Source: a virus. From it: a stretch of DNA of 39,035 bases. Positions 8,711 through 27,967 of the stretch are shown in pieces (the first letter of the stretch is position 1; each line of letters begins with the position of its first letter). The notes beneath the pieces are model-generated. The model did no database searches. It worked only from the letters and a program-made list of their open reading frames with translations, and had not been told where the DNA came from. The stretch lies in the UHGV virus genome UHGV-0212837. One strand, 5' to 3'. The translations under genes and the position numbers were made by a program.

Positions 8711-8857
8711 ACATCTGCAGTAAACCGCGCATCGCAGCGCGTAACAATCCCGAGTCTTTCAGAAAGCTGAGCCTGAGAACTGCCGTATATGGTGGCGACC
8801 ATCTCGGGGCGGCTTTTCTGTGCGAACAGGCTCATCTTTCTAAAAGGTAAAGACGCA

Positions 8858-9400
8858 ATGAACTACCCAACCGTTGTTAACGATATAGATTTCAGAGACC
8901 TAATTTTTGTAGCAAACAACGATCCGGTTACAGATTCTTTTATGGTGGCAAAAGCATTTGGAAAGCTGCCGAAGAACGTGGTTCGTGACATTGAACGAAC
9001 CATAGAAGCTTGCCCTCCTGAGTTTGATGCAAAGCTCAACTTTGAGCTTTGCTATAAAAACAATGAGTTACAGAATGGTAAGCCGCAAAAATTCTACCGT
9101 CTCCGCAAGGATGGGTTGATGCTTTTGGTTATGTCCTACACCAAAAAAGAAGCAATGCGTATCAAAATTGCTTACATCAACGCATTTAACTGGATGTACG
9201 CGATGCTTCAGGTTGGTCATCGTCAATTTGAAGAAGAGAGAAATGCCGTAATGCTGGAGTACATGAAAGAGAAGGATGTTGCCAGCATGTCAGGTCGCCT
9301 GCTTAATCGCTGGGGAAAAATTAAGAAGCCTCAGCTACTGGCGAGAATTGAACGCCTTGAACAGCACGGGCAAACCGTAATCCCCGGACTCACTAATTAA
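8858..9400 (+). CDS. rha: Rha-family phage regulatory protein (P22 orf201-like)
   Basis: Internal ATG at 8858 with AAGG SD; N-terminal Rha-like motif; position between lysis and packaging as in P22. Confidence 0.6.
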   Translation: MNYPTVVNDIDFRDLIFVANNDPVTDSFMVAKAFGKLPKNVVRDIERTIEACPPEFDAKLNFELCYKNNELQNGKPQKFYRLRKDGLMLLVMSYTKKEAMRIKIAYINAFNWMYAMLQVGHRQFEEERNAVMLEYMKEKDVASMSGRLLNRWGKIKKPQLLARIERLEQHGQTVIPGLTN

Positions 9401-15591: not shown

Positions 15592-16886
15592 TGGCATTAA
15601 ATGAAGGTCAACTGGTCACGTATGCTCTGGATGAAATCATCGAAACCGTCCAGAACCTGACGCCAATGGCGTCCAAAGTGACAAAATACACCCCTCCGGC
15701 AGAATCCATGCAGCGTTCAAGCAACACCGTATGGATGCCTGTTGAGCAGGAAGCGCCAACCCAGACTGGCTGGGATTTAACTGGCAACGCAACCGGGATT
15801 CTGGAACTCTCCGTAAAATGCAACATGGGCGATCCGGATAACGATTTCTTCGAGCTTCGTGCAGATGACCTGCGTGATGAGCGTTCTTACCGTCGCCGCA
15901 TCCAGGCATCCGCCAAAAAACTGGCGAATAACATTGAGTCAGCAATTGCCAAACAGGCAACCGAAATGGGCTCACTTGTTGTTCACGATACCCGCGCAAT
16001 TGGTCCATCTACTGGCCTGTCTGGCTGGGATTTTGTGTCTGATGCAGAGCGCCTGATGTTCTCCCGTGAGCTAAACCGCGATATGGGCATCAGTTACTTC
16101 CTGAACCCTGACGATTACCGCAAAGCAGGCCGCAACCTGGTAGATGGTGACATCTTTGGGCGCGTTACTGAAGACGCGTATCGCAACGGTACTATTCAGC
16201 GTCAGATTGCTGGCTTTGATGAAATTCTTCGCTCACCGAAACTTCCGGCAGTTACCAAGTCAACCGCTACTGGTGTAACTGTTTCTGGTGCGCAGAAGTT
16301 TAAGCCGCAGGCATACACCCTTGATACCGATGGTAACAAAGAGAACGTCGACAACCGTGTTGCAACGGTGACCGTATCCTCCACCACCGGATTTAAGCGC
16401 GGCGACAAAATCAGTTTCACTGGTGTGAAATTCCTGTCTCAGATGGCGAAGAACGTGCTGACTGATGATGCTACTTTCTCAATCACCCGAGTGATCGATA
16501 GTACTCACATCGAAATCACGCCGAAGCCGATTGCGCTGGATGACGCGTCACTGACAAAAGAAGAGAAGGCTTACGCTAACGTAAACACCTCTCTTGCTGA
16601 TACCACTCCGGTAAACGTTCTGAACGTGGCAACAACCACCGCTAACGTGTTCTGGGCTGATGACTCAATCCGACTGCTGTCTCAGCCTATCCCGGTAACC
16701 CATGAACTGTTTGCTGGCATGAAAACGTCTTCCTTCAGCATTCCTGGCATTGGTGTTAACGGCATCTTCGCAACGCAGGGTGATATCAACACTCTGTCTG
16801 GTAAGTGCCGTATTGCTGTGTGGTATTCAGCATGTGCTGTACGACCAGAGGCAATTGGTGTTGGTCTGCCTAACCAGACTGCGTGA
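15591..16886 (+). CDS. Major coat protein (P22 gp5-like)
   Basis: 430 aa class, strong similarity to recalled P22 coat. Confidence 0.95.
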
Positions 16887-21069: not shown

Positions 21070-22467
21070 ATGGCTACGTGGCAACAGGGTATTAATTCTG
21101 GTGGTTTTCTGGCTGGCATCGGTACGCAAAATGAGAATGCGCCAAAGGCAAGCGACATCAACGCAACGCTTGGTCTGATCCGCGAAAACAATGAACTGGC
21201 TCGCTCAGGTGTAAATAACATTGGTCTGACCGCGTTACGTGGTCTGGCTGGAGTTGCTGATATTTACAATCAGGAACAGCAACAGAAAGCGATTAGTGCG
21301 TTCAATAAGGTTCACGCTGATGCATGGGCTTCTGGTGATCCATCTGGACTATTTAAGTTTGCCCAGGAAAATCCAGCGTTTGTTGCACAGGCACAACAGG
21401 CGTTTTCCGGTCTTAATGAGCAGCAACGCAACGATATGGGCGATTTAGCCATGAGGGCTAACGTCGCTCTTTCTCAGGGACCGGAAGCCTACAGTAAATT
21501 CATTACTGACAACAAGGACAGGTTAAATCGCGTGGGTGCGAATGCTGACTGGATGATTCAGACAGGTATCCAGAATCCAGAGCAGTTATCACACATGCTG
21601 ACTACTATGTCTCTCGGTGCGCTTGGACCAGAAAAGGCGTTTGCTGTTCAGGACAAGATGGCTGGTCGTGAAATTGACCGAGGCAGGCTGGCAGAGACAA
21701 TCCGCAGCAATCAGGCTGGCGAGGCGCTAACAGCACGAGGCCAGAACATCACGATGCGCGGTCAGGACTTATCTGCTTCTACTGCGCGACGCGGGCAGGA
21801 TTTGGCAATGCAGCGAGCGTCAACAAGAGGAACCGCTGGGAATGATGAGCGTACAGTTCAGTTATCAGATGGCAGAACTGTAACGGTAGGCGGGAAACTT
21901 CACGGCGCTGGGGCTAATGCGTTCTACGAAGGCATCGACAACGAGGGGAATATGGTTCGCGTTCCTGCCAGTTCAATCGCAGCTCCTGCAACATCGTCTG
22001 CATCAGCACAAAACTATGCGATGAAGAAGGATATCGACGCGATCGCAAATGCAGACGCTTCTGCTCTCGATTTCATGACAGGAATGACAGGTGGTGCAGG
22101 TAATCCAGCAATTGGTGCTGATGTTCGCAGCCGATTAACAGGAAAAGAGCAGCGCCAGTTATATAACTCAGCACAACGTATTCAGGGCAGAATGCAGAAT
22201 CAGGGTGTGGCGGCAGCAAGGGACATGGGTGCCAGTGGTATTAACACCGTTGCAGAAGCGAAGATGTATTTTCAGGGGATGCCGCAGGTTGACTATTCGA
22301 GCCCGGAGGCTATGCAGCAGTCGATTCGTGAGATTCAGGAATACACCAACAATTACAACCAACAATATAACGTTAATGTTGGTAAATCTCAGCGGAAGCA
22401 ATCTCAACCTGCACAGGTATCACAGCCAGCAGCCAGCAGTAACTTTTCTTCACTATGGGGTGATTAA
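21070..22467 (+). CDS. Ejection protein (P22 gp20-like)
   Basis: 465 aa; synteny and composition. Confidence 0.8.
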
Positions 22468-24464
22468 TGGCTAAAGCATGGAAAGATGTTATCGCCTCTC
22501 CACAGTATCAGGCGTTAGCACCAGAACAAAAAGCGCAGGCTCAGGAGCAATACTTCAATGAAGTCGTGGCCCCGCAAGCCGGAGAAAATGCAGAGCAGGC
22601 TAAGCAAGCTTTCTATGCAGCCTATCCATTGCCATCTGTGCAGCCAGTGGAGACACAACAACCAGTAGCACAGCAACAACCACAGCAAAGTGGATTTATG
22701 TCTGATCTTGGCGAAGCAGTAAAAGAGACTGGTCGCGGACTGGTGCAGGCTGGCGTGAACGTGGCAAACATACCTGCATCAGTTGCCGATGCTGTAACAA
22801 GTGCGGCTGCATGGGCTGGCGGTAAACTCGGCATTGGCGATGGTACATATCAACCAGCGCCACGAGTAACAACGCAGGGATTAGAGCAGGACTTTGGCCT
22901 TCAGCAAGGCGCGCTGACTCCACAAACGACAGAGGGAAGGGTATTTGCTGAAGCATTGCCTTACCTCACTCCTGCTGGCGTTGAGAGAGCGGCGGTACAG
23001 GCACCAACACTTGCTGGTCGAATTGCTCATGGGGCAACTCGCCTTCTAGCAGAAAACGCAGTTGGATCACTTGCTGCAAACAGTATGAAAGATGATGCGG
23101 AAGCACTCGCTACCGATTTAGGTGTTGGCGTTCTGGCAGGCGGCGCTATTAACGCTGCTGGACGTGGATTAGGTGCTGCTTATCGTGGCGTTCGCGGTGC
23201 TATTGCGCCAGAAGCGCAGCAAGCTATCAGATTTGCAGAGCGTGAAGGAGTTCCTCTGCACACTACAGACCTGTTACAACCCACTTCCCGCGTCGGAAAA
23301 ATGGCGCAGACTACAGCAGAAAATATCCCTCTGGCCGGCACAAGCGGAATGAGAGCAACGCAACAGGAAGCGAGAAGCCAGTTGGTTCAGAGATTTGCTG
23401 ATAAATTCGGTGAGTATGATCCAGCGGTTGTTATTGACAGCCTTAAAGCGAAAACATCAGGAATTCGTCGCGCTGCAGGAAATCGACTGGAGCAGGTTCA
23501 GAATGCTATGGCTGGAGTAAACATTCAGCCTGCGCGAGCAATTCAGCAGATTGATACTGAGATATCTAATCTGCAGAAGCTTGGTAAGGTAGCTGATAAC
23601 GAGACAATTTCAAAACTTCAGTCATATCGTGATGAGCTTGTTCGCAATGCTGGTCCTGATGGTCCGGTAAATCTGGATTTGAAGCAATTAAGCGACCTGC
23701 GCAGCCAGTTCAGAATGGACGTGAAGGGTGAGCGACCAGTGTTACCAAACCGTTCCGATGCTGCCATTCAGCGCGTTTACAAGGCAATGACCGACGATAT
23801 CAATGGTGCCATTGGTCAGAATCTTGGCAACGATACTCTCCGTAAATATCAGCAGGCCAATGCCGTCTACGCTGACGAAGCGGCGAAACTAAAGAATACC
23901 AGGCTGAAGAATGTTCTCATGAAAGGCGACCTGACGCCGGAAGTTGTCAACAACATGCTATTCAGCAATAACAAATCGGAAATTAAGACGCTGTATAACT
24001 CAATTGGTCGTGTTGGCAGGGCGCAAATGCGCAATGGCATCATTGGAAAGGCGATGGAGAAATCTGGCGGATCCCCTGACCAGTTCCTTCGGCAGCTTAA
24101 CATCCTGCAAAACCAGACTGGCATCACATTTAAGGGGCAGGACGCTGCTTATCTGAAAGGATTAAAAAACTATCTGCAATCCACGCAGCAGGCTGCAAAA
24201 GCAGCAGTAACAACACCAACAGGGCAGCAAACCATCCCGTTCATTATCGGGTATGGGACGGCAATGAACCCGGCGACAACTGGCGCAGCGGTAAGCTACG
24301 GACTTCTTACTCGCGCCTATGAGAGCGAGCCATTCAGAAATGCAATGCTCCGAATGGCAAATACCCCACGCGGATCAACAGCGTTTGAGAAAGCCATGCA
24401 GCAGGCGCAAAAGGCCATTAACGCCATTACTCAGGGTGCCAAGTCTGATGCGTTGTCAGAATAG
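22467..24464 (+). CDS. Ejection protein (P22 gp16-like)
   Basis: 665 aa; synteny, ATGA-type overlap with gp20. Confidence 0.8.
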   Translation: MAKAWKDVIASPQYQALAPEQKAQAQEQYFNEVVAPQAGENAEQAKQAFYAAYPLPSVQPVETQQPVAQQQPQQSGFMSDLGEAVKETGRGLVQAGVNVANIPASVADAVTSAAAWAGGKLGIGDGTYQPAPRVTTQGLEQDFGLQQGALTPQTTEGRVFAEALPYLTPAGVERAAVQAPTLAGRIAHGATRLLAENAVGSLAANSMKDDAEALATDLGVGVLAGGAINAAGRGLGAAYRGVRGAIAPEAQQAIRFAEREGVPLHTTDLLQPTSRVGKMAQTTAENIPLAGTSGMRATQQEARSQLVQRFADKFGEYDPAVVIDSLKAKTSGIRRAAGNRLEQVQNAMAGVNIQPARAIQQIDTEISNLQKLGKVADNETISKLQSYRDELVRNAGPDGPVNLDLKQLSDLRSQFRMDVKGERPVLPNRSDAAIQRVYKAMTDDINGAIGQNLGNDTLRKYQQANAVYADEAAKLKNTRLKNVLMKGDLTPEVVNNMLFSNNKSEIKTLYNSIGRVGRAQMRNGIIGKAMEKSGGSPDQFLRQLNILQNQTGITFKGQDAAYLKGLKNYLQSTQQAAKAAVTTPTGQQTIPFIIGYGTAMNPATTGAAVSYGLLTRAYESEPFRNAMLRMANTPRGSTAFEKAMQQAQKAINAITQGAKSDALSE

Positions 24465-24553
24465 CTTCGCAAACACCAGGAACGTGCAAAAACCAAATAT
24501 GTAGAACGCAATATTCAGCATATCTCTTTGCATAAATCCTCCGTAACTGATGG

Positions 24554-24814
24554 TTAACTGCTGTCTTTTTTATATATCTCTTTGAGCGTATCAAAGACAA
24601 TTTTCTTAACCATATCAGATTGTTGTTCTGCCATACGCTCTGCATCGTCAATGTAAACTGATGCAGAGCTTTGTTTAGCCAATGATTCTTCAATCGCTGC
24701 AATTATCTCTGAGTTCAGCGACCTGTTATTCATCTTCGCACGCTGCTTAATTTTCGCGTGGAGTTCATGCGGAAGTCTCAAGTGAAACTGCGCCTCGTCG
24801 TATTTACTGTACAT
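24554..24814 (-). CDS. mnt: Mnt-like ribbon-helix-helix repressor (Arc/MetJ family)
   Basis: Aligns along its length with recalled P22 Mnt (LNSEIIAAIEESL, DDAERMAEQQSDMVKKIVFDTLKEIYKK); start taken at internal ATG 24814; track ORF extends to 24847. Confidence 0.75.
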   Translation of the reverse strand: MYSKYDEAQFHLRLPHELHAKIKQRAKMNNRSLNSEIIAAIEESLAKQSSASVYIDDAERMAEQQSDMVKKIVFDTLKEIYKKDSS

Positions 24815-24935
24815 CCTTGATGCCTCACCAGTTGGGTGGAATGGCATCGTAACCTACTGGATAAATACTCAATAGTACCATTTCGGTATGCAATCACATC
24901 ATGGTTGCATCATATCATTCGTCTGGAGTAATGAA

Positions 24936-27242
24936 ATGTCAGATATCACCGCAAATGTTGTGGTAAGCATGCCTTCGCAACTCTTCACTATGGCGCGTTC
25001 TTTTAAAGCGGTTGCCAATGGCAAAATTTATATCGGAAAAATTGACACTGACCCGGTAAATCCAGAAAACCAGATCCAGGTTTATGTGGAGAACGAAGAC
25101 GGCTCTCACGTTCCTGTTTCGCAACCAATCATCATTAACGCTGCCGGATATCCGGTATATAACGGACAGATTGCCAAGTTCGTAACTGTGCAAGGTCATT
25201 CTATGGCTGTGTACGATGCATATGGGGCGCAGCAGTTCTATTTTCCGAATGTGCTGAAGTATGATCCTGATCAGTTACGGAAACAGGTGGAGCATAATCT
25301 TTTTAATATTTGGAAAGAGCTATCTAATAGCTATGGTATTAATCTAATAGGAACATTTGAGTCAGGATTTACAATTGACGACAGGAGACAGGCAGGGCTT
25401 TTTCTTAAAGATGGTAAAGTTTATACAAGGAAAGGATTAGATAATGTTATTGTCCCTCCGGGGAGTTACCCAGAACCTTCATTATGGGAGCCTGTTTCTT
25501 TTATAAAAGAAGAAACAATATATGTAGGAATAGAACCATTTAAGTTACATGAAAGTAATGATGGTGCAAAAAATGATGAAATTCTTGAAAGGCTTGCGAG
25601 ATATATTGAAACAAGAAGTGGGCCTGTGAGGGTAATTTTTCCAAAAGGAGATTTTTATGTTGGAAGCCAGTATCTTTCAGGTGCGACAGGATTTGGCGGG
25701 TCTTATATACCAAACCAGAAATGTACAGTAAGAAATTTCAATTATCCACTGCGGTATGAATTTAATGATAGCAATTTTATTTTCTCAGATGGATTGCGGG
25801 TTGGGTCATTTGATCCGGTAACTGGCCTCCCAATTAAAACAATTCAAACAAATTTTGACTATCGTGCAAATAGAGGTATTTTATTTGGGTTTAATGGCTG
25901 TCCAATTGTTTCCATCTCAGGAAGAGTTAATATTGATTTCAATGGAAAGAGTGTAATATTAGGCGGGGAGTTCGGGGATTCTGGATATCAATGTCCAGAA
26001 TATGGATTTTGGTTTATTGATCATAAGGTTTTGATATTTGATGCACATTATACAGCATATGACGGAGCAATGGATGCTATTTATTTAGCAGGATTGAATG
26101 GAGATGATTGTTATTCACGAGTTACTAATTTCTCTATTAACAAAATGGGGCGTTCAGCTTTTGTTGTTGCTGGCGGAGACAATATTTATATTAGTGGCGA
26201 CGCCTATAACTCCGGGCTTGGTAGTATATCAAGTTCACCTGGACATAACTTTGCCATAGAGTCAGAAGTACGCAAAATTTCAAATGTAGTACTTGAAGGA
26301 GTTACTGCAAATGAAGCAAAATTCTCTTCATTTAGCATCTATAGGACTCAATCGAATCCAGTTAATGACATTAAGGTGGTAAACTCATATCTTTCAAATT
26401 CTTTCAACATAACATGCAAATCAAATACACCTAATTTAAAATACATTGATTGCACTTTTAGAGGGTTGATTGGAGAGCACAGAAATGAGTTCTTTGATCA
26501 TTCAGTCGACTTAAGAGCTGCAAAACTGATAAGATGTAATCATTATGATACCAAGCCAGACGGTTCTTTAACGAACGCATCAAATGGCACCCATTTTGAT
26601 AGTTCTAAAATAATTAGATTAACATTCAGTGAATGTAATATCATATCATCCGGGTTCAAGCCTGGAAGAGGAACAATAGGTTCAATATATGAAGCTGTAA
26701 TAGATGGCCTGACTGTCACTGTTAACGGAGATATCACGTTTGCCGCAACAAATGGTATAAAAATACTTAATTTTGAAAATCCAGTAAAGATAGAAAATTT
26801 TGAATTAATAAATAGGACAATAGGTAACGGCACAGATTCGCAACGAGCATATATAGGTGTGTCTGGAATTGAAAATGCATCTATAAAAAATGCAGCAATA
26901 TCAGGGGTTGGGCAAGAGAAAGACACCATACTTTGGTTGTATCCATTAATAAATTCCGGGGGAAGGGCGGGTCGCCTTGTTGATAGGGATGCCAAATCTT
27001 CTGTAGGGGCACAACAATTCCTTTCTTTAGGGACGGATTCATATTTGAATGAATCGCAGAATGTATCAGGGTATCAAAGAATATTTTCTGTAACACAGTT
27101 GCCAAAAACTGGATATTGGGTTAGAGGAGATGTTTTATTTTTCAAAAATCCTTCGCCAGGTGGTCACATTGGTTTTGTATGCACATCTTCTGGAGAAGGA
27201 GAAGGTGCAATATTCAAAGCATTTGGGGCAATAAGTCCTTAG
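24936..27242 (+). CDS. Tailspike protein: P22 gp9-type head-binding domain (first ~110 aa) fused to a divergent AT-rich receptor-binding domain
   Basis: [11 protein letters not shown]...NVLKYDPDQ matches P22 gp9 N-terminus; remainder unrelated to recalled P22 gp9; start at ATG 24936 with GGAG SD. Confidence 0.9.
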
Positions 27243-27346
27243 TAAGGATATCTTTGATATTAATTTATTTTATATAAATAAGCTAAGGTGCATATACAAA
27301 GCTTTGCACTTAATTGCAAGGCTTTGTGCACTTCGATAGTGGTTAA

Positions 27347-27366
27347 GGTGGATCACTCCACCTTTT
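27347..27366 (+). terminator. Candidate terminator after the tailspike
   Basis: GGTGGA-TCAC-TCCACC followed by TTTT. Confidence 0.45.
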
Positions 27367-27664
27367 CATCAAGCCAGTCCGACCACCACTGCATCATTTC
27401 TCTGCGCTTATCGTGGTAGATGCCTCACTATCACACGGTGATAGTTCATTACTGGTTTGCATAATGGATAGAGAACTGAGGATAAAAGATATCCCAAAAC
27501 CCCAAAATCTCATCTTTAGGATTTGCAGAAAGGGAGGCGTGAACAAATACCTGCGCATGAAAACGGAACTAGTCCAGATGTGATGTTTGTGGTGATCACA
27601 TACATCATTAACGATGCTCGTTATGGTAAGTTTGATGACTACCCGATGAAGTGAAAATTGTGTT

Positions 27665-27686
27665 GTGTACCAAATTGCGTACCAAA
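27665..27686 (+). repeat. Two direct copies of G(T/C)GTACCAAA (candidate integrase arm-type or regulator sites)
   Basis: Copies at 27665-27674 and 27677-27686. Confidence 0.45.
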
Positions 27687-27915
27687 CTAAAATCACAAAT
27701 CATGAAACCCTTGTTCATGGCGGTTCTCATGGGTGTTGCGCGTAATCGTGAAAGAGGAAGGTAGGTTGTTTGTCTGTGTCTGTCATTGTCTAGCATTGTC
27801 CACTGTAGTTAATTAACTGTCTGTTATAACTCGAAAAACAACCTTTTTTTCACCTGAGTATGTCTACGAACGTCAAATATAGTTGTTTACTGTGCGCTGT
27901 TGTCCATGTGATATT

Positions 27916-27959
27916 GTGTACCAGATGTGTACCAAACCATTATTTTTGAGCGTACCAAA
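27916..27959 (+). repeat. Three further copies of G(T/C)GTACCA(A/G)A just upstream of int
   Basis: 27916-27925, 27927-27936, 27950-27959, same orientation as the 27665 cluster. Confidence 0.45.
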
Positions 27960-27967
27960 TATTATTT

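Follow-up and report, generated by a model that had tools for sequence, protein, structure and literature searches.

In the immI region of phage P22, mnt is accompanied by arc, sar and ant, and in a P22 lysogen the Mnt repressor silences the ant gene of superinfecting P22. Transcripts that start at the P22 promoter Pant can reportedly reach gene 9, as Berget et al. are said to have found in 1983. The region was named 'ant moron' by Villafane et al. (2008), with the proposal that it may influence the level of tailspike (PMC2629481). Mnt-only ant morons have been described for phages ST64T, ST104 and L (PMC2629481; PMC8022706), and for the mnt gene of phage L the option of a functionless remnant was raised by Zaworski et al. 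(2020; PMC8022706).

The solo-mnt arrangement is frequent, already recorded in these papers, and not unusual. The same module as the one described here was detected in 277 of 5426 complete E. coli genomes, and 441 relatives were found in IMG/VR. Solo mnt genes adjoin the tailspike gene in phages VSe13, JEP4, Gally, L/ST64T, ST160 and Proteus phage Brookers, and occur also in prophages of Klebsiella, Rahnella, Serratia and Citrobacter.

The solo mnt gene and its product

The DNA analysed here, called the window below, is the whole stretch of 39,035 nucleotides of the virus genome UHGV-0212837. It is a complete-looking P22-like (Lederbergvirus) genome of the E. coli type, with genes for replication, the nin region, Q, lysis, terminase, portal, coat, three ejection proteins, tailspike and integrase, as well as early-left and immunity regions. 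The closest record is phage IME10, which covers 77% of the first 25 kb of the window at 96.5% identity. A previous reading of the same DNA from its letters only (the sequence-only reading) had placed a Mnt homologue on the minus strand between a gp16-like gene and the tailspike gene, and this was confirmed by Pfam and PDB matches and by the identity of the flanking genes (Table 1).

By synteny, the module occupies the position of P22 immI. The gene before it is the last one of the late operon ahead of mnt and matches the end of Sf6 gene 13 at 94% DNA identity; the gap of 89 bp between it and mnt is without an ORF, and there is none upstream of mnt either. On the other side, the tailspike gene has its RBS (GGAG) at 24925-24928. 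The variable insert between gene 16 and the tailspike gene thus holds mnt without ant or arc, as in the Mnt-only ant morons, and the window represents the minimal form of this element, with mnt as its sole gene. Further along, the interval of ~725 bp from the tailspike to the integrase gene (27243-27967) holds no convincing gene, its only ORFs, of 100 and 62 aa, being without a Pfam match; relatives have O-antigen-modifying genes there, and attP presumably lies within it.

Table 1. Observed and predicted features of the mnt locus in the window
Feature	Position	Strand	Details
DNA-transfer (ejection) protein, gene-16 position	22467..24464	+	phrog_770 'DNA transfer protein', 1e-238
mnt	24554..24814	-	86-aa solo Mnt-type ribbon-helix-helix repressor; N-terminal QFHLRLP beta-strand, C-terminal tetramerisation helix
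Probable 5' untranslated mnt leader	24815..24847	-	RBS GAGG 24823-24826; read as 11 extra codons in the ORF list
Degenerate Pant-equivalent	24841..24869	+	ATGGCA-17-AATACT; inferred start ~24876, inside the operator
Predicted Pmnt	24846..24872	-	-35 TTGAGT 24867-24872, 15-nt spacer, -10 TACGAT 24846-24851; inferred start ~24839
Predicted Mnt operator, AGTACCATTTCGGTATG	24874..24890		Centre 24882; cores TACC 24876-24879 and GGTA 24885-24888
Tailspike mRNA leader hairpin, ATGCAATCA-CATCA-TGGTTGCAT	24888..24910	+	9-bp inverted repeat
Tailspike	24936..27242	+	P22 head-binding domain, Head_binding PF09008 2e-67; start agrees with relatives

In its 97-residue reading, the minus-strand ORF 24554-24847 matched the Pfam families Arc (PF03869, 1e-14) and Repressor_Mnt (PF11423, 2e-13). 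The match to PDB entry 1MNT (3e-19, over residues 6-79) revealed the N-terminal ribbon-helix-helix (RHH) domain, and that to the tetramerisation domain of 1QEY (3e-8) covered residues 56-84; the predicted product has the C-terminal coiled-coil tetramerisation domain of the family. Its identity to P22 Mnt is 47.5%. The beta-strand differs from that of P22 Mnt (AQFHLRLP versus PHFNFRMP), as the sequence-only reading had given it. An assignment as a type II antitoxin of the HicB/FitA RHH kind was also considered and rejected, as no toxin gene adjoins mnt and the weak HicB and FitA Pfam matches stem from the shared RHH fold.

The true start of the gene is probably M12 of the long reading, the ATG at 24814, giving a product of 86 aa. 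GAGG precedes this ATG by 8 nt, and the same GAGG-N8-ATG arrangement is found in the mnt gene of phage Gally. Of three RefSeq E. coli copies examined, two have the 86-aa form in their PGAP annotation; in the relative L010, PGAP called the long form. The upstream ATG (24845-24847) overlaps the predicted -10 hexamer of Pmnt, and in the 11 upstream codons a hand count over the variable sites of 85 close copies gave 8 nonsynonymous versus 2 synonymous polymorphisms. On the grounds of RBS spacing, PGAP calls, -10 overlap and the pattern of upstream polymorphism, the 97-aa form was rejected in favour of the 86-aa one.

The absence of arc and ant, also claimed in the sequence-only reading, was borne out over the window by tblastn, Pfam scans and Rfam. 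When P22 Arc, Ant, SieA and orf59a, JEP4 Rha and KilA, and the VSe13 antirepressor were used as tblastn queries, none of them was found in the whole window, and the only matches obtained were mnt itself and the c2-type repressor. No Bro gene was found in the 39-kb window, nor arc, ant, sar or KilA, and 24848-24935 has no RHH-like ORF that could be a candidate arc. Rfam gave no match to sar RNA in the window or in 24400-25000, and PADLOC gave no match to a defence system. In Pfam scans of about 30 other ORFs, the sole match of antirepressor type was the Rha of the late operon (8789-9400), which is also present in P22, alongside Ant. This late-operon Rha apart, no antirepressor of a recognised family that could plausibly be controlled by Mnt is left in the window genome.

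Operator, promoters and tailspike leader

In P22 orientation, the annotated Omnt (AGGTCCACGGTGGACCT) comes after the -10 of Pant and the hexamer CTCAAT. CTCAAT also occurs in the window, where it precedes AGTACCATTTCGGTATG; the alignment sets this sequence in register with P22 Omnt, and the site, just upstream of Pmnt, is likely to be the Mnt operator. It is an imperfect palindrome with 4+4 symmetric core bases, versus 7+7 or more in the other classes. TACC is without variant in the 83 close copies covering the site, 2 of which have a change at the first G of GGTA. The core TACC-N5-GGTA is kept in every intact member of the QFHLRL class, in six genera, its carriers including VSe13, JEP4, Escherichia, Salmonella, Serratia, Klebsiella and Rahnella; the centres (ATTTC, ATTTA, GTTTC, GTTTA, ATTTT, TTAAC) and the flanks are variable. 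The Citrobacter copy, in which mnt has become a pseudogene, has an operator core mutated to TACT.

For TACC-N5-GGTA, the chance expectation is 0.11 matches per window and two matches were found. The second exact match to the core, TACCACTCCGGTA at 16601-16613, lies inside the coat gene and is probably due to chance. Beyond this coat-gene match, no further operator near another gene was found in the window.

The residues at the His6 and Asn8 positions of P22 Mnt are reported, in the work of Knight and Sauer (1989), to contact bases. As shown in Table 2, the operator site covaries with the beta-strand over four to five Mnt classes, and the change of Asn to His in the strand coincides with the loss of the inner CAC/GTG of the operator. 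These comparative data agree with the earlier suggestion that the altered strand implies a different operator.

Table 2. Mnt classes by beta-strand, with their operators (predicted except for annotated Omnt) and neighbours
Beta-strand	Members	Operator	Context
HFNFRMP	P22, epsilon34, Pluralibacter, Pectobacterium	GGTCCAC-G-GTGGAC(C)	Adjoins arc (ant seen in P22, epsilon34, Pluralibacter)
QFNFRMP	Phlomobacter	ATATCAC-G-GTGATAT	Adjoins arc
QFNLRLP	L, ST160, Gally	A(A)GACCAC-N-GTGGTCT(T)	Adjoins tailspike (solo)
QFNLRLT	Proteus phage Brookers	AAGACCAC-G-GTGATAC, hybrid half-sites	Adjoins tailspike (solo)
QFHLRL[P/T/S]	Window, Sf101, IME10, VSe13, JEP4, Escherichia sp., Serratia, Klebsiella, Rahnella	GTACC-N5-GGTA[T/C]	Solo, adjoins tailspike or another tail-type gene, HNH in Rahnella

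Promoters were sought with a simple sigma-70 PWM scan in which the positive controls, P22 Pant (16.8) and Pmnt (14.4), were top-ranked. The predicted Pmnt of the window scored 8.5 and was the second-best leftward site, the best one (CTGACA-17-AATGAT, 8.9) being located inside the tailspike start. The homologous position was the top leftward site in Gally (11.8), in L (10.7) and in VSe13 and JEP4 (9.4), and in the Klebsiella and Rahnella relatives a putative Pmnt with TTGTTG-17-TACGAT was read by eye. Phages of the window, Sf101 and IME10 type show a 2-bp deletion at 24850-24852 (GTAAAACC to GTAACC) when compared with L003, L005 and L098. The deletion is carried by 78 of the 85 close copies; it shortens the Pmnt spacer from 17 nt to an unfavourable 15 nt and shifts the rightward -10.

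In the rightward direction, the candidate ATGGCA-17-AATACT scored 7.0, against 16.8 for P22 Pant, and about one such site is expected by chance in the stretch scanned. The Pant-equivalents of the other solo-Mnt phages scored 4-5 or were absent, with no conserved counterpart, and a strong Pant overlapping the operator, as in P22 immI, was not found in the window. Since scores of this size can be reached by chance in a stretch of 180 bp, the case for the promoters rests on positional homology. Judged in this way, the predicted Pmnt is retained and Pant has decayed in all the solo-Mnt phages examined.

The same reading had taken the TTGCAT at 24905-24910 for a -35-like element. The hexamer is there, but in neither promoter scan does it head a promoter-like site, and a -10 placed 17 nt past it would set the start of transcription at or beyond the tailspike ATG. 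No terminator-like site was found in 24400-25000, that is, between gene 16, mnt and the tailspike gene, so the tailspike is most simply expressed by read-through from the late operon.

Direct-repeat-like motifs had also been pointed out in 24848-24935. Both strings are present (TGCAATCACATCA at 24889-24901 and TGCATCATATCA at 24906-24917), but they do not constitute a direct repeat, as the repeat search found no family. They were rejected as an operator, being the arms of a hairpin in plus-strand RNA, the P22 counterpart of which is far from Omnt. At the seventh pair of the stem, 173 tailspike leaders had U.G in most cases, U-A in about 10, C-G in 5 and C.A in none, a pattern that fits pairing in plus-strand RNA only. 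The loops vary freely among the leaders, and one Escherichia sp. copy (L091) carries a double compensatory change from G-C to U-A. The outcome of the covariation test was modest, with 96.6% of cells paired versus 94.4% in shuffles, and 9 of 500 shuffles as high.

The predicted P22 counterpart of this hairpin lies just upstream of gene 9, past the ant terminator and ~1.2 kb from Omnt. Hairpins of different sequence at a similar position before the RBS were predicted in P22, L, JEP4, Klebsiella and Rahnella, and VSe13, JEP4, Klebsiella and Rahnella lack the window's own hairpin despite their common beta-strand. As an analogous hairpin is predicted upstream of the tailspike RBS in P22 as well, the hairpin belongs to the tailspike leader and not to Mnt control; it may have a role in mRNA processing or stability, or mark a module boundary. 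Across P22-like phages, a recurrent hairpin sits ~25-45 nt upstream of the tailspike start codon, at about 1590-1606 in L004 and likewise in the leaders of L005, L007, L097 and L098. Overall, the sequence-only reading was right at the level of the genes and wrong on the operator and promoter motifs.

Selection on mnt and possible roles

In the 85 close copies of mnt (58 unique coding sequences, 86 codons), pN/pS was 0.14, with a pS of 0.086 and a pN of 0.012; the RHH domain had a ratio of 0.11 and the C-terminal part one of 0.19, and a premature stop was present in one copy. Down to 65% overall identity, proteins from several genera show next to no variation in the DNA-binding domain (YDEAQFHLRL..HAKIKQRAKMNNRS), and their C-terminal halves are mosaic. 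The low pN/pS and the near-invariant DNA-binding domain argue for a selected function. About 5% of complete E. coli genomes have the exact module, and several P22-like lineages keep Mnt after loss of Ant; this frequency and the repeated retention of Mnt without Ant suggest likewise that a selected function probably exists.

A scan of IMG/VR with the operator pattern yielded at least 120 stretches, at least 80 of which adjoin mnt. A tailspike N-terminus follows downstream in 77 of the 80 mnt-adjoining operator loci listed, mostly 67 or 79 nt away, and none of these 80 has arc or an intact ant. A cognate phage with ant was not found in the phage collection, in the 6 GTDB representative loci or in the Klebsiella and Rahnella contexts either. 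One IMG/VR locus (L220) retains the last ~110 codons of a P22-type ant with its terminator, between a QFHLRL-type operator and the tailspike gene, ~40-420 nt past the operator. This remnant argues that the solo mnt state arose by deletion, with L220 as a deletion intermediate.

The explanation that we favour, and hold to be moderately probable on these comparisons, is that a functional, self-contained Mnt module, made up of Pmnt, one operator and mnt, outlived the deletion of arc-sar-ant from an immI of P22 type. A Mnt tetramer would bind the single 17-bp site, its specificity having shifted from the His6/Asn8 of P22, which would read GGTCCAC, to a Gln/His pair reading GTACC. The operator centre would lie ~43 bp upstream of the Pmnt start, and transcription from the degenerate rightward promoter would begin within the site. 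Mnt in a lysogen would then control its own expression and block any rightward initiation towards the tailspike leader, and late-operon read-through would supply the tailspike. Our best guess for the selective benefit of mnt is insurance of the prophage against Ant-encoding relatives, residual control of transcription entering the tailspike gene, or both. The lack of a cognate phage with ant among the 80 listed operator loci weakens the idea of insurance, and since a loop that is purely autoregulatory offers no evident advantage, Mnt may in reality act on another target.

Other roles have to be weighed against this one. Mnt made by the prophage might act in trans on the Pant-ant of incoming P22-like phages with the same operator, thereby preventing inactivation of the prophage's repressor and its induction. 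The silencing of superinfecting ant in P22 lysogens is a precedent, purifying selection acts on mnt without a target in cis, and the ant remnant of L220 shows that this class of operator once controlled ant; nevertheless, with arc or intact ant in none of the 80 listed loci, and none in the phage collection, the 6 GTDB loci or the Klebsiella and Rahnella contexts, the threat looks rare, and we rate such immunity as rather unlikely. It is unlikely that the QFHLRL solo Mnt is a repurposed regulator, expressed in the lysogen, whose recognition code is new, with a His in place of Asn8 that reads GTACC, and whose conserved job is independent of ant. If it were, this job could be the gating of transcription into the tailspike leader or, alternatively, the protection of the late operon's 3' end through convergent transcription from Pmnt. 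The chance is slim that the target is a different one altogether, be it a host gene, the coat-gene site at 16601-16613 or the late operon, the latter through antisense or interference by leftward transcription from Pmnt. With no terminator-like site after mnt, its transcript may run antisense into gene 16, and the mnt of Rahnella-type phages is the first gene of a short leftward operon that includes a Rap1a-like cargo gene. The coat-gene site does match the core exactly, as the only other such sequence in the window, but it is without the T-rich centre and the flanks and is placed inside a conserved coding region, and one extra match to the core is not improbable.

The two remaining possibilities fare worse. 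The idea of a functionless leftover of a recent arc-ant deletion is in line with the option raised for phage L (PMC8022706), with the premature stop in 1 of 85 copies, with the Citrobacter pseudogene and its mutated operator, and with the 2-bp deletion in the Pmnt spacer. A pN/pS of 0.14 at a pS of 0.086, a DNA-binding domain that is nearly invariant across six genera though the C-terminal halves are mosaic, and the conservation of the operator and Pmnt make such decay very unlikely. We consider it highly improbable, finally, that Mnt binds TGCA(A)TCA..ATCA motifs at 24889-24917 and switches a promoter of TTGCAT type that feeds the tailspike gene, which was the proposal of the sequence-only reading. 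The motifs do exist there, and the reported reach of P22 Pant transcripts into gene 9 counts in its favour, as does the influence on tailspike level proposed for the ant moron (PMC2629481). The motifs are nonetheless hairpin arms with pairing-preserving variation and not a direct repeat; VSe13, JEP4, Klebsiella and Rahnella have the same beta-strand but not this hairpin, the P22 equivalent of which is far from Omnt; no TTGCAT-based promoter ranks, and its start would fall at or past the ATG. As the rightward Pant-equivalent is degenerate and not conserved, the idea of a gate in front of the tailspike gene is weakened.

The four to five beta-strand variants matched to operator variants amount to a small natural 'recognition code' for RHH beta-strands, which is directly testable. 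Leaving this code aside, the mnt element is an ordinary component of a regulatory region that is well known.

Comparison with known systems

Compared to P22, the window has a Mnt with the same RHH N-terminal domain and tetramerisation helix, in the same position and leftward orientation, and with the same predicted Pmnt/operator geometry, including the invariant CC/GG at operator positions -4/-3 and +3/+4. The two differ in strand and operator (HFNFRMP with GGTCCAC-G-GTGGACC in P22 versus QFHLRLP with a predicted GTACC-N5-GGTAT in the window), and the window has no Pant, arc, sar or ant to control.

The Salmonella phages L/ST64T/ST104 and ST160 and the E. coli phage Gally resemble the window in that a solo mnt is divergent from the tailspike gene, with Pmnt and a palindromic operator apparently kept and Pant degenerate. 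They belong to a different specificity class, QFNLRLP with AAGACCAC-N-GTGGTCTT, and usually have one extra small gene and a bidirectional terminator, whereas the window is without both. Same-strand cargo genes after mnt were also seen in Rahnella-type and Proteus phages (L097 5261-5581, L100 5258-5620, L224 1761-2237); they encode a Rap1a-like immunity protein, an unknown protein or a lipoprotein, the window having no such gene, and Pmnt may drive lysogenic-conversion genes in these phages. In several relatives (L123, L152, L192, L097 and L100), a gene for an HNH_3/AP2 homing endonuclease of ~180 aa lies on the opposite strand between mnt and the tailspike gene; in close relatives, the endonuclease is inserted just past the first tailspike codons and the tailspike start is duplicated.

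JEP4, VSe13 and the Serratia and Citrobacter prophages share with the window the QFHLRL beta-strand, the operator core and the predicted Pmnt, which has a 17-nt spacer there, and their Mnt differs in having another C-terminal half. The JEP4 type differs further in carrying, on the far side of mnt and convergent to it, a separate operon for an HTH repressor, an RHH protein, Rha/P22AR_C and KilA. This far-side antirepressor operon is present in JEP4, L010 and the Citrobacter prophage, with a partial version in Serratia, and no Mnt site for it was found in the two loci checked, JEP4 and L010. Loci of the JEP4 type likewise have a single predicted operator site. It forms an immI-like module between gene 16 and mnt in JEP4 (L005, 3303-5963), L010 (920-3351) and L093, made up of a divergent HTH (c2-like) repressor, a small RHH protein, a Rha/P22AR_C antirepressor and KilA.

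The nearest counterparts are gp14 of Shigella phage Sf101 (NC_027398), which is labelled 'partition protein ATPase', and an unannotated gene of E. coli phage IME10. The label comes with phrog_795 and misnames Mnt in the RefSeq records of Sf101, ST64T, ST160, SE1 and epsilon34. In Sf101 and IME10 the module is 96-97% identical to that of the window at the DNA level, including the predicted operator, the hairpin and the start of the tailspike gene, and the difference lies in the receptor-binding parts of the tailspike.
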